NCBI GenBank assembly: GCA_023246095.1
Contig: JAHFJA010000005.1
Coordinates: 1-59,172 of the forward strand
Direction of reading: 5' to 3'
Length of the DNA: 59,172 nt
Source of the DNA: a bacterium
GTDB taxonomy: Bacteria; Patescibacteriota; Patescibacteriia; JACQRZ01
This document shows, piece after piece, positions 29,291 through 40,007 of the stretch; the stretch's first letter is position 1, and every line of letters begins with the position of its first letter. The notes beneath the pieces are model-generated. The model did not search any database and had not been told where the DNA came from. It saw only the letters and a list, made by a program, of their open reading frames with translations. The position numbers were made by a program, and so were the translations under genes.

Positions 29291-29435
29291 TGTAGGCCAT
29301 CAACGTACCATACAAAATGGGAGCTGTAAAGGGGTGACCATAGTAAATATCGGCCTCTGTCCTTTTAATTTCAACCATCCATCTCTCCCGCCCGACTTCC
29401 ATCATTGTTTCAAGAAGAGTATGATATTAAGCAAT

Positions 29436-29470
29436 ACTTCACACTTTCTTCATCATCTTTTCCTTATTGT
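29436..29470 (+). promoter_or_regulatory. OmpR-type tandem box plus -10 (autoregulatory promoter of the response regulator)
   Basis: ACTTCAC-actt-TCTTCAT, 11 nt, TATTGT, 6 nt, ATG. Confidence 0.7.
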
Positions 29471-29476
29471 AGTCAC

Positions 29477-30139
29477 ATGAAAATCCTTGTCGTCGAAGAC
29501 GAACCTAAGATAAACAAAGGAATCACCAAAAGCCTTCAAGACCGTGGATATGCAGTAGATCAAGCTTTTGACGGTGAATCGGGGCAGAATTTGGCGCTAC
29601 TCAACAACTATGATCTTGTTGTGCTTGATATTATGATGCCCAAACGCGATGGGCTTGAAGTTTGTCGAAATTTACGTCGCGAAGGAAATACTACGCCTAT
29701 CTTGATGTTAACCGCTAAAGATACGATACGCGACAAAATCACAGGTCTTGATATCGGCGCAGATGATTATCTCATTAAACCATTTTCCCTTGATGAGCTT
29801 GCCGCAAGAATACGAACCTTGCTGCGACGCCCTCCACTTCAAAGCGCTGATCTATTGCGTCTTGACGAAATGGTACTTGACACCCGCTCTCAAATACTCA
29901 GTATAGAAGGCAAGACAATTGACCTTACCTTGCGCGAATATGGCCTCCTTGAATATCTACTAAGAAACAAAGGCGCGGTGCTGACAAGAGACGATCTCCT
30001 TGAACATGTATGGGACCGCAACTACGACTCTTTTAGCAATGTAGTGGACGTCCACCTCAAAAATCTACGAAAAAAATTACCTACAAAATATGCAAAACGT
30101 ATTAAAACGGTTTGGGGTAAAGGATACCGGCTCTTTTGA
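29477..30139 (+). CDS. OmpR-family response regulator
   Basis: MKILVVEDE, LDIMMP, LTAK, GADDYLIKPF; C-terminal wHTH ending IKTVWGKGY. Confidence 0.96.
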   Translation: MKILVVEDEPKINKGITKSLQDRGYAVDQAFDGESGQNLALLNNYDLVVLDIMMPKRDGLEVCRNLRREGNTTPILMLTAKDTIRDKITGLDIGADDYLIKPFSLDELAARIRTLLRRPPLQSADLLRLDEMVLDTRSQILSIEGKTIDLTLREYGLLEYLLRNKGAVLTRDDLLEHVWDRNYDSFSNVVDVHLKNLRKKLPTKYAKRIKTVWGKGYRLF

Positions 30140-31136
30140 TGAGCATTTCCACAATTCCCTCTGGAAACTAACTCTCTTATATACCGTGGTTTTGGCCACG
30201 ATTCTTTTAATATCCAGCGGAGTCATCTACGGTGCATTTTCCCAAAAACTGGGGCGACGATATGGTGACTTTCGCATTATTCCTACTGATCGACCGGGAG
30301 TAGCGCTTATACAGACTCCCCCCATTTCCCAACAAGAAGTTCAAGAAGAATTGATATATTCATTAATCTTGGTAAATGGTGTATTGCTTCTCGTTGCGGG
30401 TGCGGCAAGTTACGGCCTCGCTCATATTACTCTCAAGCCAATCAAGGACTCATACGATCGCCAACGGCGTTTTTTTGCTGACGCATCACACGAACTCCGA
30501 ACTCCGCTCAGTATTCTAAAAATTGACCTGGAAAATGAAATTGCCGATACTGAGATTTCATCCGCTGCCAGGACAGTAGCAAGAGGATATCTCGAAGAAG
30601 TAGACAGAATGAGCACACTTGTATCAAATCTTTTAACACTATCCCGTATACACGACGAACGTACCATCACCCATAGTGACTTCAAGTCCACCAACCTATC
30701 CGCTGTAGTACGCGAGGTTTCCGAGCGTCTTCAACCCCTGGCAAAAGAGCATAACGTTGTTATGAGTTTAACCGAGGAGAAGAATGATATTATGCTCTTC
30801 TCGGACGAACAGCTGCTTTCAAGCAGCCTAGAGAACGTCATAAAGAATGCAATTTTATACAACAAACCCCACGGTACAGTACAAATCAATACCTCTCTTG
30901 ATATTAACAAAGCAACAATAGAAATAATTGACAGTGGAATCGGCATCGCTCCAAAAGATTTTTCTCATATCTTCGAAAGATTTTATCGAACGGACAAAAG
31001 CAGATCACGATCAACTGGAGGAAGTGGCCTTGGCCTACCAATCGTTCGTTCATCTCTCGAGCAACTAGGCGGTGAAGTATACATAAAAAGTACATTAGAA
31101 AAGGGTACTACTGTAACGTTAGAATTACCTCTCTAA
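30090..31136 (+). CDS. Sensor histidine kinase with two TM segments and a short loop
   Basis: H-box FFADASHELRTPL, N-box NAILYN, DSGIGI, FERFYR, GSGLGL. Confidence 0.95.
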   Translation: MQNVLKRFGVKDTGSFDEHFHNSLWKLTLLYTVVLATILLISSGVIYGAFSQKLGRRYGDFRIIPTDRPGVALIQTPPISQQEVQEELIYSLILVNGVLLLVAGAASYGLAHITLKPIKDSYDRQRRFFADASHELRTPLSILKIDLENEIADTEISSAARTVARGYLEEVDRMSTLVSNLLTLSRIHDERTITHSDFKSTNLSAVVREVSERLQPLAKEHNVVMSLTEEKNDIMLFSDEQLLSSSLENVIKNAILYNKPHGTVQINTSLDINKATIEIIDSGIGIAPKDFSHIFERFYRTDKSRSRSTGGSGLGLPIVRSSLEQLGGEVYIKSTLEKGTTVTLELPL

Positions 31137-31139
31137 CAC

Positions 31140-31174
31140 TCTTCATATTTTCTTCATGGGGGTACTGATATAGT
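31140..31174 (+). promoter_or_regulatory. OmpR-type tandem box plus extended -10
   Basis: TCTTCAT-attt-TCTTCAT, 11 nt, TATAGT (TGaTATAGT). Confidence 0.75.
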
Positions 31175-31293
31175 ACATGCATGATCGAGGGAAATGTCCT
31201 GAGATCTGGTGAACGAACGATATGCTGGATCTATACGTACGGAGATCTGGAATACACGCAAAGTCACCGTTCTTACTCTTAACACGGGGAACT

Positions 31294-31848
31294 ATGAAAA
31301 ATTCGAAGTTCGCCACATCAGCAGCAGTCACCGCAGCGGTGATAGTAGGTATTGCGGGTCCAGGTATTGCCGCGAGTACTTATGCAGCCAGCACGCCTGG
31401 AAGTGCCAATCCAGGAAGTAAACTGATTACCGCTATCGCCCAACGCTTTAACCTAAAAGAGAGCGACGTGCAACAGGTCTTTAATGACCAGCATACACAG
31501 ATGCAAGCAGCGCGAGAGCAACAAGAAGCAGACAGACTCACACAGGCAGTAAAAGACGGTAAGCTCACACAAGCTCAAGCAGATGCAATAACCGCAAAAC
31601 AGGCGGAAATGAAGGCGGCGATGGAAAGTCTTAAGGGGAAAACCCCGGCAGAACGCCAGGTCGCCATGAAGACACAAATAGAATCGCTCAAAAAATGGGC
31701 AACGGATAATAAAATCCCTCAAAAGTTCTTTCCTTTATCAGGTGGCCCACGCATGGGACATGGTCACCAAGGATTTGAAAAGAACGCATTTGGAGAGCGA
31801 GAGGGATTACCTAAAGGTGCCCCAAGAGCCCCTACGGCGATTCGTTAA
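31294..31848 (+). CDS. Secreted alpha-helical protein with LTxxQ-like motif (Spy/CpxP-like)
   Basis: Signal peptide; QAVKDGKLTQAQADAI; Gln/Met/Lys-rich helices. Confidence 0.6.
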   Translation: MKNSKFATSAAVTAAVIVGIAGPGIAASTYAASTPGSANPGSKLITAIAQRFNLKESDVQQVFNDQHTQMQAAREQQEADRLTQAVKDGKLTQAQADAITAKQAEMKAAMESLKGKTPAERQVAMKTQIESLKKWATDNKIPQKFFPLSGGPRMGHGHQGFEKNAFGEREGLPKGAPRAPTAIR

Positions 31849-31879
31849 ACTGCCGTAGCGCCGACAAGCATGGGATTTT

Positions 31880-31911
31880 AAAACCGAGAGCATATCAGCT
31901 CTCGGTTTTTT
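31880..31911. terminator. Bidirectional intrinsic terminator
   Basis: AAAACCGAGAGC-atatca-GCTCTCGGTTTTTT between convergent genes. Confidence 0.9.
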
Positions 31912-31942
31912 AGTGAGAAAGTTATAACTACTAATACAGCTT

Positions 31943-32569
31943 TTAATTGCGTACAATAAAGGCTTCCATCATAGGCCTCACTTTCTTCACAACAACATCG
32001 TCTTCCGCGCGAAACCCTAGAGTCACCATTACACACGACTCAAGCCCTTTTTCATTAAGCTCGAGAATCTCATCAAATTTTATTGAATCAAAGCCTTCCA
32101 TAGGACAGGTATCAATTTCTTCACACGCTGCAGCAGCCAACAAAACACCCAAACCGATATATGCTTGTTTTTTTGCCCACTCTTTGCGAGCTTCCTGGTT
32201 TTTCCCCGCGATGGATCCTTTCATCATGTTAGCATACCCGGCCAGTTGTTCTGCGGGGACTCCGCGAGTTTCAGAGACGTTCACAATATATTGATCAACA
32301 AGCGCTTCATCAATATTTTTTTCAATTGCAAAAACAAGAACGTTTGATGCATCCACCACTTGTGTCTGTCCATACGCAGCACTTTGTAAAGCCATACGTG
32401 TTTCAGGATTCTCTACGACAACGATCTTCCACGTTGGTAGACCAAAAGATGAAGGAGATAACCGAGTTGCGTCCAATAGATCAGCAAGTTGTTCTTTACT
32501 TAATTTTTTTGTGACATCGAATTTTTTTGTTGCATAGCGCCAATTCATTGCCTCTACAATATTTTTCAT
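31943..32569 (-). CDS. NAD(P)H nitroreductase (NfsB-like)
   Basis: MNWRYATKKFD, RLSPSSFGLPTW, IDTCPMEGFD. Confidence 0.93.
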   Translation of the reverse strand: MKNIVEAMNWRYATKKFDVTKKLSKEQLADLLDATRLSPSSFGLPTWKIVVVENPETRMALQSAAYGQTQVVDASNVLVFAIEKNIDEALVDQYIVNVSETRGVPAEQLAGYANMMKGSIAGKNQEARKEWAKKQAYIGLGVLLAAAACEEIDTCPMEGFDSIKFDEILELNEKGLESCVMVTLGFRAEDDVVVKKVRPMMEAFIVRN

Positions 32570-32619
32570 ACTGTTCAAAATTATAAGTAAGGATAAAACC
32601 CATTGTAGTCTATCTAGAC

Positions 32620-32656
32620 AAAAAGAAAAGGGGCTCAAATCTAGAAACCCCTTTTC
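32620..32656 (-). terminator. Terminator of the MacAB-like operon
   Basis: Minus strand GAAAAGGGG...CCCCTTTTC-TTTTT. Confidence 0.8.
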
Positions 32657-32662
32657 AAGTAT

Positions 32663-33127
32663 CTACTTTTGAGTATTATCTGATGCATTGGTTGCAGGAC
32701 TTACGAGACGAATCTGGACCGTATCAGCATTTAAGCTCCCATCTGAATTTGGCTTTCCACTTACTGTCACTTGACTTCCCACCGTAAGATCTGATGATGC
32801 ACCATTCACCGATTTTAACACCTCGGTCTTATCACCTAGAAATACAATCTTTGATCCACCATCACGAAGCTTTACGGTAATGCTCTTCCCATCATTAGAA
32901 ATGATATCACCAGCAGTAAAGCTGCCCGCTCCACCACTACGAGCACCTCCTGCGCCCCCAAATCGTGCCTGTCGCTGTCCTGGCGTCATATTCGAAATGC
33001 CCAATCCGCCCGATTTTTTTTGAGCGTTTGCATACTGCATACCTCCATAAAACGTACCTCCACCCACTATAATAAAAGCAATGACAACCCCGATAATCTT
33101 AGAAAGATTGTTTTTCTTTGTATCCAT
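32663..33127 (-). CDS. Membrane-anchored small OB-fold-like protein (DUF5666-like)
   Basis: N-terminal TM, Gly-rich linker, GDIIS.DG.SITV...LTVGSQVTVSG...G.L.A..VQI. Confidence 0.6.
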   Translation of the reverse strand: MDTKKNNLSKIIGVVIAFIIVGGGTFYGGMQYANAQKKSGGLGISNMTPGQRQARFGGAGGARSGGAGSFTAGDIISNDGKSITVKLRDGGSKIVFLGDKTEVLKSVNGASSDLTVGSQVTVSGKPNSDGSLNADTVQIRLVSPATNASDNTQK

Positions 33128-33153
33128 ATAATAATAGATTTTAGATTAAATAA

Positions 33154-34380
33154 TTATTCATATCTCAATGCGACGATGGGGTTTAATTTCGACGCTCGTC
33201 GAGCTGGGTAGTATCCGAATATAATTCCTATCACTGTTGAGACCCCAAAAGCAATAAGAATTGATGAGACAGAAACCTTCGTCTGAATTAAACCAAATTG
33301 ATTGATCCCCACTGAGATTCCCCAACCCAGAACTACTCCAATAGCACCACCCAAAAATGTTAGCATGACGGCTTCAAGCAGAAACTGAAGATTGATATCC
33401 CGCCGTTTAGCTCCAATAGCTTTTCTTAACCCAATCTCCCGTGTTCTCTCGGTTACGTTAGTTAACATCATGTTCATGATACCGATTCCGCCAACTAGCA
33501 GTGAAATACCAGCGACTGCAGCAAGGAGAATGGTAAGTGTATTAGTAACCGTTGACGCGGTCGCAACAATATCTGCTTGATTAAGCGTACTAAAATCGGC
33601 TAGCTGCGGATCAGAAATATGATGCCGTTCGAGCAACAAGGTCGTAAGGTCCTGCTGTACGGTAGACATCGACGATGAGTCACGTGCTTGAACACTAATG
33701 GTCGTTACATAATTATCCCCCGCCAAAAACCTCTCTGCGCTAGTTAATGGTACAAAAATCATGTCATCTTGACTACCAAATCCCGACCCCCCTTTTGCCT
33801 TGGTCACACCGATAATCTTAAATTCCACATTTTTAATACGGATAGTCTGACCTATCGCATTTCCTCCATCACCAAACAAATCAGTAACTACTGTTGGCCC
33901 CACGACCGCAACCTTCGATAAAGAACGAAGATGTTGATCTGTAATGAATAGACCTTGATCAAGTTGAATATTTCGAACTCCCAGGTAGGTATCGGTGACC
34001 CCGACTACTGACGTATTAGTATTTGTTCCTTTACTGGTAACTTGATATCGCCCTGATAACTCGGGGGCTACCGAGGTTATTTCTGTGTTTCCTGACAAAG
34101 TAATCGCATCAGCGTCGGCCTGTGTCAAAGTTCGAGCAGATCCCCTGCCCGCGCTTATTTGAACCCCCGCCCCTCTCTGTGCCCCAGGCATAACGAGTAT
34201 AAGATTCGAACCAATTGATTGAATACTAGACTGAATCGATCCTTGCGCACCCTGACCGATGGAAACCATAGCAATTACCGAACTAATGCCAATAACAATA
34301 CCCAAAATTGTAAGACCTGAACGCGCCTTATTGGATGAAAGACTTGAATATGTTTCATGAAGAAGGTCAGATATTCTCAT
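33154..34380 (-). CDS. MacB-like ABC transporter permease
   Basis: RSGLTILGIVIGISSV, GGIGIMNMML.NVTERTREIGLRKAIGA, GYYPARRAS.LNPI.ALRYE. Confidence 0.95.
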   Translation of the reverse strand: MRISDLLHETYSSLSSNKARSGLTILGIVIGISSVIAMVSIGQGAQGSIQSSIQSIGSNLILVMPGAQRGAGVQISAGRGSARTLTQADADAITLSGNTEITSVAPELSGRYQVTSKGTNTNTSVVGVTDTYLGVRNIQLDQGLFITDQHLRSLSKVAVVGPTVVTDLFGDGGNAIGQTIRIKNVEFKIIGVTKAKGGSGFGSQDDMIFVPLTSAERFLAGDNYVTTISVQARDSSSMSTVQQDLTTLLLERHHISDPQLADFSTLNQADIVATASTVTNTLTILLAAVAGISLLVGGIGIMNMMLTNVTERTREIGLRKAIGAKRRDINLQFLLEAVMLTFLGGAIGVVLGWGISVGINQFGLIQTKVSVSSILIAFGVSTVIGIIFGYYPARRASKLNPIVALRYE

Positions 34381-35102
34381 ATTGTAGATGCTCCGTGAGG
34401 TAGGATATGTTTCTTTCCTGAACGAGTAGGAATATCTTCAACAATACTCCCGTCTTTAATGACAATAATCCGATCAGCATGTTGCGCAACATCCGGCTCA
34501 TGGGTAATAAGTACGATTGTCCTACCCTCTTCTTTGTTCAACTTTCCAAAGGTAGCAAGAACGATCTCACCTGTTTTAGAGTCCAAATTTCCCGTCGGTT
34601 CGTCAGCGAGAATGAGTGCCGGGTTATTTACTAAAGATCGCGCGATCGCAACACGCTGAACTTGACCGCCGGAAAGTTGATTTGATCGATGAGAAAAATG
34701 CTGCTCCTCCAATCCAGCCGCAAATAATGCTTTACGTGCACGCTGCAAACGTTCTTCTCCCACAACCCCTGCATATGTCAAAGGTAACATGACGTTACTT
34801 AACACTGTCGCACGGGGCAAAATATTGAATGATTGGAATACAAACCCTATCTTTTCTCGACGAATATCAGCGAGTTCGTCATCATTGAGGGTAGATACAT
34901 CCTTGCCGTCGAGGACATATGTACCGCTTGTTGGTGTGTCCAAGGCTCCCAAGATATACATCAATGTAGATTTCCCTGACCCCGAAGGACCCATAATCGC
35001 AACAAATTCTCCGTCTTGAATAGTAAAGGTAACCCCTTTAAGTGCTTGAAAATCACTATCACCAATCCTATATGTTTTCTTAATGTTATTTACCTCGATC
35101 AT
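34377..35102 (-). CDS. MacB/LolD-type ABC ATP-binding protein
   Basis: GPSGSGKST, LSGGQVQRV, ILADEPTGNLD. Start re-placed to ATG 35102. Confidence 0.95.
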   Translation of the reverse strand: MIEVNNIKKTYRIGDSDFQALKGVTFTIQDGEFVAIMGPSGSGKSTLMYILGALDTPTSGTYVLDGKDVSTLNDDELADIRREKIGFVFQSFNILPRATVLSNVMLPLTYAGVVGEERLQRARKALFAAGLEEQHFSHRSNQLSGGQVQRVAIARSLVNNPALILADEPTGNLDSKTGEIVLATFGKLNKEEGRTIVLITHEPDVAQHADRIIVIKDGSIVEDIPTRSGKKHILPHGASTI

Positions 35103-35103
35103 A

Positions 35104-37188
35104 TTATCGTCCAGTAGCACCGGACGCTCCCCGGAATGTACCCCCCGCTCCACCCCCCCTGTTCCCCGTATTTGGCGTCCCCAACAAACTAGGTGCCTGT
35201 GTTGTGATGGTTGTTGTCGTCGTTGGACGAATCGTACGAGTAATAACCTGATCTCCTTCTTTGAGACCGTCGACAATTTCTGTTGATGTATCATTAGAAA
35301 TCCCAACAGTAACCATTCGTTGTTCAGGGGATGTATTAAGTGTCACCCCTTGATTGTTGGTCTCTTTAATCATTGTTGGTGTTACCAATTCAACATACGT
35401 AGTGCCGTCTCCTTGTGTTTTTATGGCACCATTGTCGACTGTGATAACATCTTGTTTCGCCTGAGTAATAATGGCGGCACTCGTACTCATACCCGGCTTT
35501 ACTCGACCATCTTGAGTATCAAACACAATCTTTGCTGTATAACTGACCACACCTTGAGTAACGGTTCCGATCGACTGAATTTCAACCACCTCTCCTGTCA
35601 CCTGTAATCCATCTATTGCGTCAAACGTTAATGTCGCCTTATCACCAACTTGTATTTTTGCAGCATCGACTTCATTGAGAGAAATTTCAGCAATACGTTG
35701 TTTTGTAATAAGCGTCACAATGACAGTACTTGGGGAAACTGCATCTCCTTTTTTTACAGGAACACTAGCGACGACACCATCGAATGGCGCAACAATAGAA
35801 TAGTCAGCGAGAGCTGTCTTGGCATCAGTAAGAGCATTTGCTTTTTGTTCAACCATCAATTGTTGGGTTTGCACATCGAGCGGATCTGCGCCTGCTTTGA
35901 GTTTAGCAAGCGCTGATTCTTTTTCAGCGATCAATGCCTTAGCATTAGCAATATCGATCGGATCAGCACCTGCGGTAAGTTTAGCAAGAGTCGATTCTTT
36001 TTCCTGCACCGAAGACTTGGCAGCTGCTAAATCAAGTGGTTGATTTTGCTGGAGTTGAGACAGGTTACTCGTTGCGGTTATAACTGCTTGATTATTATCT
36101 TTTACTGTCTGCTGACTCGACAATAACGCCGACAAATGGCCATTTACCTTACCAATATCAGTAGATGCTTTCGTTTGATTTGTTTTTATTTGTAAATAAA
36201 TAAGATAGTGTTTTTGAGTGCGATAATCAACCCATGCATCCATATAGTTGCTTTCGCTTTTTGTAGCCTGAGCAATTTGTTTTGTTGTGTCTATTGTTTG
36301 TTGCAATAATGACTCAACGGTGATGCGATCGGAGTATCGTGTGGACGCTTTAAATGCAGTGAAGGTCTTATCATATAAAGCACGTGCTGTCTGCTCATCA
36401 TTTTCAGCAACAGTCTGTAGTGTTTGCATATACGGCCGATCAGCAACATCAACGTCATTAATCATAACCATGGAATTACTTTCATTATTTATGATATCAG
36501 TATTATGAAGTATCCCATCCACATCGGTCATAATTGTGGGGAGATCTAAAAATGTATTTGCAATTTCATTGAACGCATCTTCGTACGCTTTCGCAGTATT
36601 GTCAGTGGCTTTCTGAGAAGCTGCTTGGGCATTACTGAGGTCAGTAGGCTGAGATAGAACCAACTTTGAAAGAACATCTTGAGCATTTTTTAATGTATTC
36701 TGTGCCTGCAGAACCGATGAAGCGTCCGCCGATTGTTGTAATTTACTCAAAGCATTACGAGCACTATCTACGGCATTTTGTGCTTGAAGTATTGAATATG
36801 AATCTGCTGGTTTCTTTAATTTTTCTAACGCTAATACGGACGATTCCCAATTTGATTGTGCATCCCGGACCGTCTTTTGTGCATCACGATCATCAATCAT
36901 AGCCAAAACAGTACCTGATTTTACATCAATACTATCTGTCAACACATTCAACACATCTCCCGATACCTTTGACTTAACATCGACTTGATTAAGTGCGGCC
37001 ACCTGCCCGCTGCCTGACACCGTGCTAATTAACGCACCTTTTTGGGCAGTACCCAGGACATACCGAACTTCCGTAGCTGGTTTATTCAGTGCAGTTAGCG
37101 CCCAATAAGTGCCTCCTATCAAAACAACAACACTGACCCCAACAAAGATACGATGGCGTCCGAATAACGTAACAATTTTCTTCAACAT
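35104..37188 (-). CDS. Efflux periplasmic adaptor (MacA/HlyD family) with very long coiled coil
   Basis: VSGSGQV...VKSKVSG.V; IVAPFDGVV...V..GD; LNEVDAAKIQVG; PGMST; GL.EGD.V. Confidence 0.9.
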   Translation of the reverse strand: MLKKIVTLFGRHRIFVGVSVVVLIGGTYWALTALNKPATEVRYVLGTAQKGALISTVSGSGQVAALNQVDVKSKVSGDVLNVLTDSIDVKSGTVLAMIDDRDAQKTVRDAQSNWESSVLALEKLKKPADSYSILQAQNAVDSARNALSKLQQSADASSVLQAQNTLKNAQDVLSKLVLSQPTDLSNAQAASQKATDNTAKAYEDAFNEIANTFLDLPTIMTDVDGILHNTDIINNESNSMVMINDVDVADRPYMQTLQTVAENDEQTARALYDKTFTAFKASTRYSDRITVESLLQQTIDTTKQIAQATKSESNYMDAWVDYRTQKHYLIYLQIKTNQTKASTDIGKVNGHLSALLSSQQTVKDNNQAVITATSNLSQLQQNQPLDLAAAKSSVQEKESTLAKLTAGADPIDIANAKALIAEKESALAKLKAGADPLDVQTQQLMVEQKANALTDAKTALADYSIVAPFDGVVASVPVKKGDAVSPSTVIVTLITKQRIAEISLNEVDAAKIQVGDKATLTFDAIDGLQVTGEVVEIQSIGTVTQGVVSYTAKIVFDTQDGRVKPGMSTSAAIITQAKQDVITVDNGAIKTQGDGTTYVELVTPTMIKETNNQGVTLNTSPEQRMVTVGISNDTSTEIVDGLKEGDQVITRTIRPTTTTTITTQAPSLLGTPNTGNRGGGAGGTFRGASGATGR

Positions 37189-37230
37189 AGAAAAATAAGG
37201 AATTATGCCCAATTAACGCAATCCGATGGA

Positions 37231-37265
37231 ACTTTAGCACGAATTATATGAAGGAATCATGAAGA
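37231..37265 (-). promoter_or_regulatory. OmpR-type tandem box plus extended -10 for the MacAB-like operon
   Basis: Minus strand TCTTCAT-gatt-CCTTCAT, 11 nt, TAAAGT (TGcTAAAGT). Confidence 0.75.
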
Positions 37266-37295
37266 GTATAACTCCTTACTTTTCACATTATATTT

Positions 37296-40007
37296 CTAAT
37301 TTTGGGTCCCCCAACGCTGGTCTGCTGCCACTAAAATCTCCGCAACGTCCTTCATTGTTGCTTGTTTCTTGAAATTGGATGCACTGACCTCTGCACCAAT
37401 TTGACCTAGATATTGTGTCGTTTTCGCTGCATTATTCAAGTCAACTGAAGGCTTTACTTTGTAAGCTCCCATAATCACCTTCGTAGCATCCTGAATAGTA
37501 ACTGTCCCCTTCCCTCCTGTCACAGAGTTTTTGTCGATCGTCTTGTTAATAAGACTCGCAAGTGCATTTTTATCAATCTTTTGATCGAGATTAATATTGC
37601 CATTCTTGTCAGGCGTTACTGCACCACCCTGTCGAAGGTACTGCATTTCTTGAAATAACGGATTATTGTCATCAATGTTTTTAGCTGGAATAAGCTTATC
37701 CTTAAACTTTTCGGTATTTGATGAACCAATACTCTTGGAAACCTGATCCTTTAATGCTTGGACATACCCGTTAACCGCTTGCTGATCCTTTAACTCTCCC
37801 GACTGAACTTTATCATTGAAATCTGCTAATTTCTGTTCGAGACCAGGAGCAATGTCAGCAGCGAATGTATAGTTCTTTATTTGCCCCGAAAGAGTCTGCA
37901 TTGTTTGTATAGTATCTTTATTCACCCCCTTAAGCGACTTCATGGTAGCGATACTCTTGTCAGCGTTCTTTGATTCATCCAAAAGACCTATTTTCCCCTC
38001 GAGAATCGCTGTTCTATCTTCTTCTGGAACGAGAGGTACAATGTCATTTATTATCCCGTCAATAAGTTTTTTATCACTCGTCCTATAAGCGAGTACCTTG
38101 TCCATAAGATCGGGGCTCAATGAGCCTAATGTAGCATTGATATCAAAGCCATTTTCGTTACTATTCACGATACCTTTTGTCTTTGCAGCTGAATCAGTAC
38201 TCAAATTAGGAAGATCTGTTGAGTTATTGGCCATCTGCACTATTTTCAAAACCGCATTATTTTGATCATTTGTTATTTTAACTCCTGAATCTTTCAATAC
38301 ATTGACCAGCTTGGACAGCGCCAATACTGCGTCATCAAGAACATAACCACCCTTAAACGGATCGCCCCCATCGTAGAGAGCTTGCGATTCTTTTAATTTT
38401 TGATTCGCCTGTGCTAACAAATCTTTTGCCCCGCCGACATTTCCTCCGCGCTTGGAAAGCTCTGGAATAGCACTTTCCAGACTTGCAATCGCCGCCCGAA
38501 CAGCGCCAAGCCCTTGTGCAAGCAGCTCACCACGCGTCTTCATAGCTACCGATCGAATAGCCGCATCTACTTTTTCACGAGTGTTAAGACTTTTGGCTTG
38601 ACTCATGTAAGTAAGAAACGTATCCGTGTCACCCGCATTCAATGCCACTTCCGCTTTGTTCACCAATCCATCCAATTGCACCGCTAGAGCTTCCAAATCG
38701 GTCGTATTAACCCCATACTCGAGCGCTCTTCCAATACTCAAATGCAATGCTTTAGCACCATCCTTGCCTTGCTGTAAAATCTCTTGTAGACGAGCTGTTG
38801 GATATGCCTGATCTCGAAATGCTAAAAAGGTTTGTTCTGGATTTAAATTACGAATTTCTTGTATTTTCTGCGTTGCAGTAACATTATCACCATCATCAAA
38901 CGCTTTTTTAGCTGTTGTGTATAATGTCTTCAGCTTCCCATCCAAATCCAAAATATTTTGCGGTATATCGGTACCTGCACTTTTTGCTTTCTCAAGACCA
39001 CTTCCCGCACGGTCTATACCGGCCGAAATCTGATCCAATATTGTTGAAATTTTAGACGTTGGGATTGATTTACCACTGACAAGATCCGCCTGTGCAGTAC
39101 CATCGCCATAATCTTTTCTCATTTTTTTTAATAACGCCGCAGCCTCCTTTTTTTTTCCTGCTTTTACCAACCCTTCTGCGTCGTCCAAAAACTTCTGTTG
39201 CGTCAAAATATCACCTTGAATCTGCATTACCTCGTCAGCCGGTGCATTTTTTAACGCTGAATTCAATGCACTGGTTAATTTACCTCGAATATCCTTTATG
39301 AGATCCAATGAAATGCCTTGCGAATCAGCAAATGCGGCATATTTTTGATCGAAACCAACCGCCTGAAGTTCTTGCAATTTTGTCCCTGCACCGGCATAAT
39401 CCTTTGCTTCAAATAAATGTACTGCTGCATCATAAATAGGACGAGCCGCCTTTACGCTCTTTTCCATTGCAGGATCAACAGTAATCATCCCATCTTTCAT
39501 CTCTGTAATACCCTCTTCAGCCTGAGAAAGTCCCTGTTTAATTTGTTCTAGCGCATTTGCCAACTTACCAATTCCCGGATCAGCACCTGCTCCCCCCACA
39601 GGAACCCCCATAAATTCTGGCATCGCCCCACCAGAAACACCCTGGGGAACAGCACCATATTTGCTAAAATCCATTTTTGAAGCGTCAAAGCCGGTGGGTA
39701 CTCCTGCGGGGATCTCACCTGAAAATCCAGTAGGGGCAGTATTCGTTGGAATACTTCCATTTGGATAACTGCCCAAAGTCTCAGGTGGAACTGTAGTTCC
39801 TACAGGAGCTGCGACTGCACCTCCCATCGCACCCGCTGCAGAGGCGGCTGCGGCGGCTTGAGCCGCTTGGCATTTTGCCAACATAGCGTCCGTTGGTTGC
39901 GAGGTAAATTGGCACTCTGGAACGTCAGCATGGGCAAAACCACCCTGCATCACAATCATTGTGATTGCCATAAACACCGCCACACTCTTTGGGATTCTTT
40001 TATTCAT
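37296..40007 (-). CDS. Large secreted helical-repeat surface protein with SLH-like C-terminus
   Basis: Signal peptide ending FAHA; repeated helical units; C-terminal IDDNNPLFQEMQYLRQGGAVTPDKNGNINLDQKIDKNALASLI resembles S-layer homology. Confidence 0.55.
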   Translation of the reverse strand: MNKRIPKSVAVFMAITMIVMQGGFAHADVPECQFTSQPTDAMLAKCQAAQAAAAASAAGAMGGAVAAPVGTTVPPETLGSYPNGSIPTNTAPTGFSGEIPAGVPTGFDASKMDFSKYGAVPQGVSGGAMPEFMGVPVGGAGADPGIGKLANALEQIKQGLSQAEEGITEMKDGMITVDPAMEKSVKAARPIYDAAVHLFEAKDYAGAGTKLQELQAVGFDQKYAAFADSQGISLDLIKDIRGKLTSALNSALKNAPADEVMQIQGDILTQQKFLDDAEGLVKAGKKKEAAALLKKMRKDYGDGTAQADLVSGKSIPTSKISTILDQISAGIDRAGSGLEKAKSAGTDIPQNILDLDGKLKTLYTTAKKAFDDGDNVTATQKIQEIRNLNPEQTFLAFRDQAYPTARLQEILQQGKDGAKALHLSIGRALEYGVNTTDLEALAVQLDGLVNKAEVALNAGDTDTFLTYMSQAKSLNTREKVDAAIRSVAMKTRGELLAQGLGAVRAAIASLESAIPELSKRGGNVGGAKDLLAQANQKLKESQALYDGGDPFKGGYVLDDAVLALSKLVNVLKDSGVKITNDQNNAVLKIVQMANNSTDLPNLSTDSAAKTKGIVNSNENGFDINATLGSLSPDLMDKVLAYRTSDKKLIDGIINDIVPLVPEEDRTAILEGKIGLLDESKNADKSIATMKSLKGVNKDTIQTMQTLSGQIKNYTFAADIAPGLEQKLADFNDKVQSGELKDQQAVNGYVQALKDQVSKSIGSSNTEKFKDKLIPAKNIDDNNPLFQEMQYLRQGGAVTPDKNGNINLDQKIDKNALASLINKTIDKNSVTGGKGTVTIQDATKVIMGAYKVKPSVDLNNAAKTTQYLGQIGAEVSASNFKKQATMKDVAEILVAADQRWGTQN

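Follow-up and report, generated by a model that had tools for sequence, protein, structure and literature searches.

Promoters controlled by PhoB of Escherichia coli carry pho boxes, tandem direct repeats with an 11-bp period in which 7-8 conserved bp are followed by an A/T-rich linker, and these boxes stand 10 bp upstream of a TAN3T -10 element in a position that replaces the -35 element (PMC1906773). Here we describe a locus of closely similar build in a 59,172-nt stretch of DNA (59 kb; hereafter the window) from the genome of an uncultured member of the Patescibacteria (candidate phyla radiation, CPR), recovered from a groundwater metagenome. Three direct repeats of the form CTTCAY-N5-CTTCAY precede a two-component regulator gene, a gene for a secreted helical protein and an export operon that begins with a HlyD-type adaptor. 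We consider it highly probable that these repeats are operators for the adjacent OmpR/PhoB-family regulator and that the three promoters form a pho-box-like, activator-dependent local regulon. The scope of the regulon as treated here is the window together with related loci.

The resemblance to the PhoB system goes beyond the 11-bp period and the repeats lying 10-11 bp upstream of the -10 box. Pho boxes may contain extra phased repeats, which we find at one related locus (L001), and PhoB controls its own operon, as the regulator described here would. The differences are that the half-site is CTTCAY rather than CTGTCAT, that the kinase has no PAS domain and that the regulator mRNA is apparently leaderless. 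With 196.3 bits against the PhoB equivalog TIGR02154 (cut-off 296.2) the regulator falls short of a PhoBR assignment, and its predicted targets do not include pst or pho genes: they are the secreted helical protein and a MacB cassette.

Two other OmpR-family operators are similar in sequence. CopR of Corynebacterium glutamicum binds the proven operator TGAAGATTTnnTGAAGATTT, whose reverse complement contains CTTCA-N6-CTTCA (PMC3140484), so that core, 11-bp period and, on the other strand, an A/T-rich linker are all shared with the boxes in the window. CopS likewise has a short extracytoplasmic loop, and the heavy-metal subfamily is the best NCBIfam match of our regulator. In C. glutamicum, however, the box stands at a long distance upstream from the promoter, whereas the boxes here abut the -10 element. 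Both family scores are also under cut-off (regulator, TIGR01387, 221.5 vs 279.2 bits; kinase, TIGR01386, 149.3 vs 292.55 bits), and neither a copper ATPase nor a multicopper oxidase nor any other metal gene is among the targets in the window and related loci. The PmrA box, CTTAAT-N5-CCTAAG, consists of hexamer direct repeats 5 bp apart that are bound head-to-tail (PMC3973317). Our half-site CTTCAT is one base away from CTTAAT, and BasR ranks second among the solved relatives of the regulator (3e-45), but the PmrA equivalog score is 202.6 against a cut-off of 330 and the targets differ; there are no lipopolysaccharide-modification genes at the locus.

In its gene content the locus recalls CpxAR-CpxP and BaeSR-Spy/MdtABC, which combine a self-inducing OmpR-type system, as the one in the window is predicted to be, with an adjacent small secreted helical protein and an efflux system. 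Here the pump is a MacB-type ATP-binding cassette (ABC) exporter instead of a resistance-nodulation-division (RND) pump, and the organism has no outer membrane. The cassette itself is similar to YknWXYZ of Bacillus subtilis and to MacAB in combining a HlyD/YknX-type adaptor, an ABC ATPase and a MacB/FtsX permease. The yknWXYZ operon is under sigma-W control and, in keeping with this, the cassette follows an extracytoplasmic function (ECF) sigma factor in some Patescibacteria. In the window it would instead be wired to the two-component system, and a DUF5666 protein takes the place of YknW.

To our knowledge, gene regulation in Patescibacteria is almost unstudied, and our literature search found no published two-component regulon in the group. 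The mechanism that we propose is conventional, that of a textbook pho-box-like OmpR-family regulon in a poorly known group. The analysis offers an operator consensus (CTTCAY-N5-CTTCAY, 10-11 nt before TAnnnT), a conserved core target belonging to an unannotated secreted family of about 150 members, sequence evidence for a leaderless regulator mRNA and, apparently, a case in which a single export cassette has come under a two-component system in some lineages and under an ECF sigma factor in others. These claims are open to in vitro or heterologous tests that do not need the organism to be cultured.

Three direct repeats abutting -10 boxes

A first-pass annotation of the window had described the pattern NCTTCAY-N4-YCTTCAT-N11-TAnnGT at three places (sites 1-3 in Table 1), and the sequence reads exactly so at each of them. 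All three sites are intergenic and in the correct orientation for their genes: site 1 ends 6 nt before the regulator ATG at 29477, the kinase stop codon precedes the start of site 2 by 4 nt, and site 3 lies within the 108-nt gap between the stop of a 903-aa gene (37296) and the HlyD start. No fourth copy of the full pattern is present in the window, even at 2 mismatches; shuffles of the window gave an expectation of 0.03 matches and in 0 of 100 cases reached three.

As the full pattern had been written from the three sites themselves, an independent test was made using a 21-nt weight matrix built from 41 sites of related genomes with the window sites left out. Sites 1, 2 and 3 score 20.7, 25.5 and 25.5 on this relatives-only matrix, well apart from the next best match in the 59 kb (12.3). 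Only 1 of 100 Markov-simulated windows had a maximum score of at least 20, and 2.33 Mb of unrelated loci yielded four matches at or above that value. The first-pass annotation had suggested such a matrix scan, carried out here on the window and related loci, and had named a motif common at random positions as one result that would count against its reading of the sites; shuffles, matrix, simulation and background all speak otherwise.

The same annotation held that the 11-bp repeat takes the place of a -35 element, which agrees with what we find. The hexamers 17 bp 5′ of the -10 boxes agree with a -35 element at 0-1 of 6 positions in all three cases, a sigma-70 promoter scan of the window listed none of these promoters, and the spacer between box and -10 is 11 nt at all three sites. 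Direct repeats that abut the -10 box in place of the -35 element are the arrangement of a pho-box-type promoter.

Among the high-scoring matches elsewhere, three Paraburkholderia loci (L056:6252, L067:6300 and L078:6671) have a common box, TGCTTCAT(A/G)TTCACTTCATCT, with scores of 20.8-21.3 and about 3.5 kb from an OmpR-type regulator gene. A CopR/PmrA-like regulator unrelated to the one in the window may use this box as its operator.

Boxes at the regulator and secreted-protein promoters of relatives

The first search, which was based on the regulator, returned mostly paralogues of 40-50% identity from many phyla and a single orthologue (L001). The secreted protein proved a far more productive anchor and led to 70 Patescibacteria loci, about 22 of which share the order regulator (63-72% identical), kinase, secreted protein. 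A further search anchored on the recognition helix of the regulator added five more genomes with this order, and it was this search that found L247. Labels on the closest relatives, which are Patescibacteria/CPR genomes, place them in Saccharibacteria, Uhrbacteria and related groups.

Every locus with the series regulator (63-75% identical), kinase and secreted protein has a zero-mismatch CTTCA-N6-CTTCA at one or both promoters, and altogether boxes stand at the regulator promoter, the secreted-protein promoter or both in about 27 related genomes. Zero-mismatch boxes were found at 20 sites about 40 nt 5′ of the regulator ATG and at 23 sites between the kinase stop and the secreted-protein gene, while the DNA that flanks them has diverged at both promoters alike. 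Lack of conservation in orthologous promoters had been put forward as grounds for abandoning the motif, and these 43 sites show the reverse. The geometry is kept as well: the gap to a TAnnnT -10 box is 11 nt at 22 of 23 secreted-protein sites (18 of 23 with an extended TG) and 10-11 nt at 19 of 20 regulator sites, which amounts to 10-11 nt at 41 of 43 sites overall, and the 11-bp half-site period holds at about 50 conserved sites. Four 11-bp-phased half-sites (ACTTCAT, TCTTCAG, TCTTTAG, CCTTCAT) stand before the secreted-protein gene at L001:8826-8882, compared with two in the window.

At one locus (L255:11216-12200) a strong box (score 24.6) is located 3′ of the kinase gene, but downstream of it there is neither a secreted-protein homologue nor a plus-strand open reading frame of at least 60 aa.

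Recognition helix and half-site covary

The regulator has both domains of its family in full: the Response_reg match spans the whole model, with the phospho-acceptor Asp motif DLVVLDIMMPKRDG present in the translation, and the winged-helix model Trans_reg_C is matched over positions 1-77 of 77. Its matches to DrrD, BasR, RegX3 and PhoP are full-length, and its best solved relatives are DrrD, BasR/PmrA, RegX3 and PhoP. The closest of these recognise direct repeats with an 11-bp period, as the PmrA box illustrates (PMC3973317). The best NCBIfam matches (heavy-metal subfamily, RppA, PmrA and PhoB) are all under cut-off.

Among the regulators whose boxes have CTTCA, the recognition helix, SNVVDVHLKNLRKKL, hardly varies: three members have conservative changes, N-for-D and V-for-L in two of them and I-for-L in one. 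A sister clade, in which the regulator is 42-47% identical and the gene order is secreted protein, regulator, kinase, has the helix PNTVE(A/V)YIGYLRNK. Both promoters of this clade carry an 11-bp-phased repeat about 10 nt before the -10 box, which reads (C/T)TCAG-N6-(C/T)TCA(G/A/T). The half-site thus covaries with the recognition helix across the two clades (SNVVDVHLKNLRKKL with CTTCA vs PNTVE(A/V)YIGYLRNK with (C/T)TCAG). Given this covariation, and given that a box directly precedes the gene of the regulator itself in about 27 genomes, the adjacent regulator is the likeliest binder by a wide margin, and the boxes are very probably its docking sites. The proposal that the motif is the binding motif of the adjacent two-component system therefore gains support from conservation, geometry and helix covariation, all of them read from sequence.

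The start codon of the regulator gene follows the -10 box TATTGT by 6 nt, on which basis the regulator/kinase mRNA is probably leaderless; the corresponding gap in relatives is 6-8 nt in 14 of 20 cases. The sister-clade loci (L105, L118, L121, L122, L125, L129, L141, L143 and L144) likewise have the regulator start codon 6-8 nt past the -10 box.

The third promoter varies between lineages

Of the regulators found, the one nearest to that of the window (75% identical) is at L247, where regulator, kinase, secreted protein, HlyD, ATPase, MacB and DUF5666 genes are all on one strand. This locus has boxes at the regulator, secreted-protein and HlyD promoters (scores 25.6, 25.3 and 26.8). The third box comes after a terminator, with TAGACT 11 nt further on and the HlyD ATG at a distance of 56 nt. 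At L230 the order is regulator, kinase, terminator, CTTTACACTTTCTTCAC-N11-TATAGT and HlyD, and the box scores 15.0. The HlyD-ATPase-MacB-DUF5666 cassette is itself widespread in Patescibacteria: a MacB-anchored search found it in 80 genomes (80 loci, MacB 59-75% identical), with the two-component system nearby only in L230. The closest HlyD homologues are 49% identical.

Because boxes stand before HlyD in L247 and L230 but at nearly none of the 80 loci, the export cassette is best described, from its distribution, as a genuine but lineage-variable member of the predicted regulon, the conserved core of which is the two-component system with the secreted protein. In other lineages the cassette appears to be wired to a different regulator. 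The first-pass annotation had taken the motif to define a local regulon; its three promoters are supported, but the HlyD/ABC operon is not a conserved member.

At L243:162-1768 and L244:2719-4291, which are among the closest HlyD relatives, the cassette stands directly after an ECF sigma factor gene and two short genes without annotation (139 and 163 aa), which may encode an anti-sigma pair.

Proposed mechanism and alternatives

In the mechanism that we propose, the small two-transmembrane kinase would phosphorylate the regulator, and a head-to-tail regulator dimer would occupy the two 11-bp-phased half-sites at about -41 to -24. The bound dimer would then recruit RNA polymerase to a promoter with a good -10 box (TAnnnT, often with extended TG) and no -35 element, by class II activation. 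Three units would be controlled in this way: the regulator's own operon with the kinase, transcribed as a leaderless mRNA under positive autoregulation; the secreted helical protein, as the conserved core target; and, in this lineage, the HlyD-ABC ATPase-MacB-DUF5666 export cassette. We infer binding, activation and transcription start sites from motif, geometry, conservation and covariation.

Several observations weigh against this account. The sole metatranscriptome of the same groundwater sample has no reads on 29300-37400. A box that overlaps the -35 region could in principle repress instead of activating. A few orthologous regulator genes (L245, L082) lack a strong box or have it farther upstream, and one metagenome-assembled genome (L103 and L230) contains two paralogous systems whose helices differ at two positions and between which there may be cross-talk. 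As regards the third unit, about 85 HlyD-cassette loci of other Patescibacteria are without a box before HlyD, and some of these box-less cassettes follow an ECF sigma factor gene (two of the closest HlyD relatives) or an Nramp gene (one).

If the adjacent regulator were to bind the boxes as a repressor, its dimer would occlude the -35 region. Either signalling or the unphosphorylated protein would then silence the regulon, which the housekeeping sigma factor would otherwise read. Repeats at about -41 to -24 do overlap the seat of sigma region 4, and some OmpR-family regulators repress from positions overlapping the -35 region. All three promoters lack a usable -35 hexamer (0-1 of 6), however, and so should be weak without an activator, and an autoregulatory box, as at site 1, is typically a mark of positive feedback. 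The fixed 10-11-nt gap, seen at about 45 sites, is also the geometry of PhoB-type activation (PMC1906773), and we regard repression as unlikely. That the repeats are read by another factor, either an OmpR-type paralogue with its gene elsewhere or an alternative sigma factor with CTTCAT as its -35 element, is suggested by the two near-identical systems in the L103/L230 source genome, by the ECF sigma factor that the HlyD cassette follows in other lineages and by the possible presence of further regulators outside the 59-kb window. Against a paralogue stand the co-occurrence of box and regulator gene in about 27 genomes, with the box directly before the regulator's own gene, and the covariation of half-site and recognition helix between the two clades. 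A sigma factor is hard to reconcile with half-site gaps to the -10 box of 11 and 22 nt, neither of which is 16-18 nt, with a number of phased repeats that varies from 2 to 4, or with a -10 box that is sigma-70-like with extended TG; CTTCAT as an alternative-sigma -35 element was rejected on the spacing and the variable repeat number. A reader other than the adjacent regulator thus seems quite improbable.

The similarity of the boxes could, finally, reflect no more than common descent or the duplication of a promoter cassette, with no regulatory meaning. Short T/C-rich words are common in AT-rich intergenic DNA, and a loose 12-base core at 1 mismatch is expected about 0.5 times per window. The flanks of the three window sites are dissimilar, however, the box is kept while its surroundings diverge across regulators that are 63-75% identical, and the independent weight-matrix statistics speak against chance, which leaves very little room for this explanation.

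Kinase and signal

An N-terminal alignment of 23 orthologous kinases, too variable for use as a search query, shows two transmembrane helices with a loop of some 35 aa, in which His, Met and Cys are nowhere conserved. The kinase has neither a HAMP nor a PAS domain. Two helices, a short loop and the absence of HAMP are a Bce-like trait; a Bce-type module was considered and set aside, as the permease belongs to the MacB type (MacB_PCD and one FtsX domain) and is accompanied by a HlyD adaptor, whereas the BceB type has 10 transmembrane helices and a large extracellular domain.

If the regulator activates from these boxes as proposed, our best guess for the signal is extracytoplasmic or envelope stress caused by membrane- or wall-active compounds or by metal cations. 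The MacB/YknX-type cassette and its alternative ECF wiring point to envelope or antimicrobial stress. A metal signal is suggested by the CopR-like operator, the sub-threshold heavy-metal family match and the His/Met/Gly-rich tails of the secreted proteins, against which stand the kinase loop without conserved His, Met or Cys and the lack of metal-resistance genes among the targets. A copper sensor in particular was set aside (NCBIfam scores under cut-off, no metal ligands in the loop, no metal-gene targets) and is retained as a minority guess for the signal. As a rough ranking, envelope-active compounds come a little short of an even chance, something else altogether is clearly less probable, and metal cations follow slightly below that.

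More tentatively, and with less than even confidence, the triad of regulator, kinase and secreted protein may form a circuit for extracytoplasmic stress that is common to the Patescibacteria and functionally analogous to Cpx/Bae, in cells without an outer membrane. The secreted protein would then act as the chief output and also modulate the kinase by feedback, and the export cassette would be a plug-in that is wired either through the portable CTTCAY-N5-CTTCAY box or through an ECF sigma factor. If this were true, the two clades with half-sites CTTCA and (C/T)TCAG would make up a readable helix-to-DNA recognition code.

The secreted protein and its leader

The secreted protein belongs to a family with 149 homologues, all of them from Patescibacteria and without a Pfam domain. 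An AlphaFold2 model contains four helices with a mean pLDDT (predicted local distance difference test score) of 75. A PDB profile search with the protein returned 0 matches, and the best Foldseek hit to the model had an E-value of 4.1, although simple helical folds are hard to match. LTQ(A/T)Q motifs are present in the family alignment, but neither the window protein nor 37 family members match the LTXXQ, CpxP or Spy Pfam families at E <=10, and membership in the CpxP/Spy/LTXXQ group was rejected for want of any Pfam, PDB sequence or fold match. DUF2680 gives a weak, sub-threshold match in 5 of the 37 members. The protein may be distantly related to CpxP/Spy. Many family members of 260-270 aa (P0002-P0019 and others) have an internal duplication of a DGKLTQAQAD...WAxxNNIP module; such proteins are encoded at L104, L108, L111, L128, L134 and L146, the last of which has three copies by tblastn.

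The gene has a long 5′ leader, about 113 nt in the window (31181-31293) and 70-340 nt in relatives. When the leaders of L104, L108, L111 and L146 were compared, the first bases, ATGATCGAGG(G)AAA, were found to be common to the window and the L104 group. The 113-nt leader has no Rfam match, and its folding is unremarkable (z = -1.4).

The export operon and its neighbourhood

Adaptor, ABC ATPase and MacB_PCD/FtsX permease are encoded in one operon, as expected for a tripartite ABC exporter. The adaptor also matches NCBIfam RND_mfp and has a precomputed Beta-barrel_YknX domain, and a DUF5666 gene lies 3′ of MacB in most of the 80 related loci. The coordinates of all features are collected in Table 1.

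Table 1. Predicted regulatory sites, genes and terminator of the locus (window coordinates).
Feature	Position	Strand	Remarks
Site 1, ACTTCAC-ACTT-TCTTCAT-N11-TATTGT	29436-29470	+	Upstream of regulator gene
Site 2, TCTTCAT-ATTT-TCTTCAT-N11-TATAGT	31140-31174	+	Upstream of secreted-protein gene
Site 3, TCTTCAT-GATT-CCTTCAT-N11-TAAAGT	37265-37231	-	Upstream of HlyD export operon
Box 1, direct repeat ACTTCAC-ACTT-TCTTCAT, putative autoregulatory operator	29436..29453	+	Matrix score 20.7; orthologous box in 20 relatives
Box 2, direct repeat TCTTCAT-ATTT-TCTTCAT	31140..31157	+	Matrix score 25.5; orthologous box in 23 relatives
Box 3, direct repeat TCTTCAT-GATT-CCTTCAT	37248..37265	-	Matrix score 25.5; counterparts in L247 and L230
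-10 box TATTGT of regulator/kinase promoter; predicted start ~29477	29465..29470	+	11 nt past box 1
-10 box TATAGT of secreted-protein promoter; predicted start ~31181	31169..31174	+	Leader ~113 nt
-10 box TAAAGT with extended TG, export operon; predicted start ~37224	37231..37236	-	
OmpR/PhoB-family response regulator, 220 aa	29477..30139	+	Pfam Response_reg 7.5e-31, Trans_reg_C 1.8e-26
Histidine kinase, 348 aa	30090..31136	+	Pfam HisKA and HATPase_c; 50-nt overlap with regulator gene
Secreted or membrane-anchored helical protein, 184 aa, Gly/His/Met/Arg-rich tail	31294..31848	+	Unannotated Patescibacteria family
Strong intrinsic terminator closing export operon	32625..32656	-	12-bp stem, then T-run
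Membrane-anchored DUF5666 protein, fourth cassette gene	32663..33127	-	Pfam DUF5666
MacB-type permease, MacB_PCD and FtsX	33154..34380	-	Pfam 2e-48 and 4.6e-24
ABC ATPase, MacB/LolD type	34377..35102	-	Pfam ABC_tran 3.8e-34; NCBIfam
HlyD/YknX-type membrane-fusion adaptor, 694 aa from ATG 37188; alternative TTG start 37212	35104..37188	-	Pfam HlyD_3, HlyD_D23

Directly upstream of box 3, a gene at 37296-40007 (-) encodes the 903-aa protein, which is secreted and helix-rich and has neither a Pfam domain nor a tblastn match in the related loci. No terminator was detected between this gene and the HlyD promoter. A Logan contig of the source DNA run is identical to the window over 29300-34308 and then continues into unlike sequence; the break at 34308 is an assembly branch or a strain variant at the ATPase/MacB junction.

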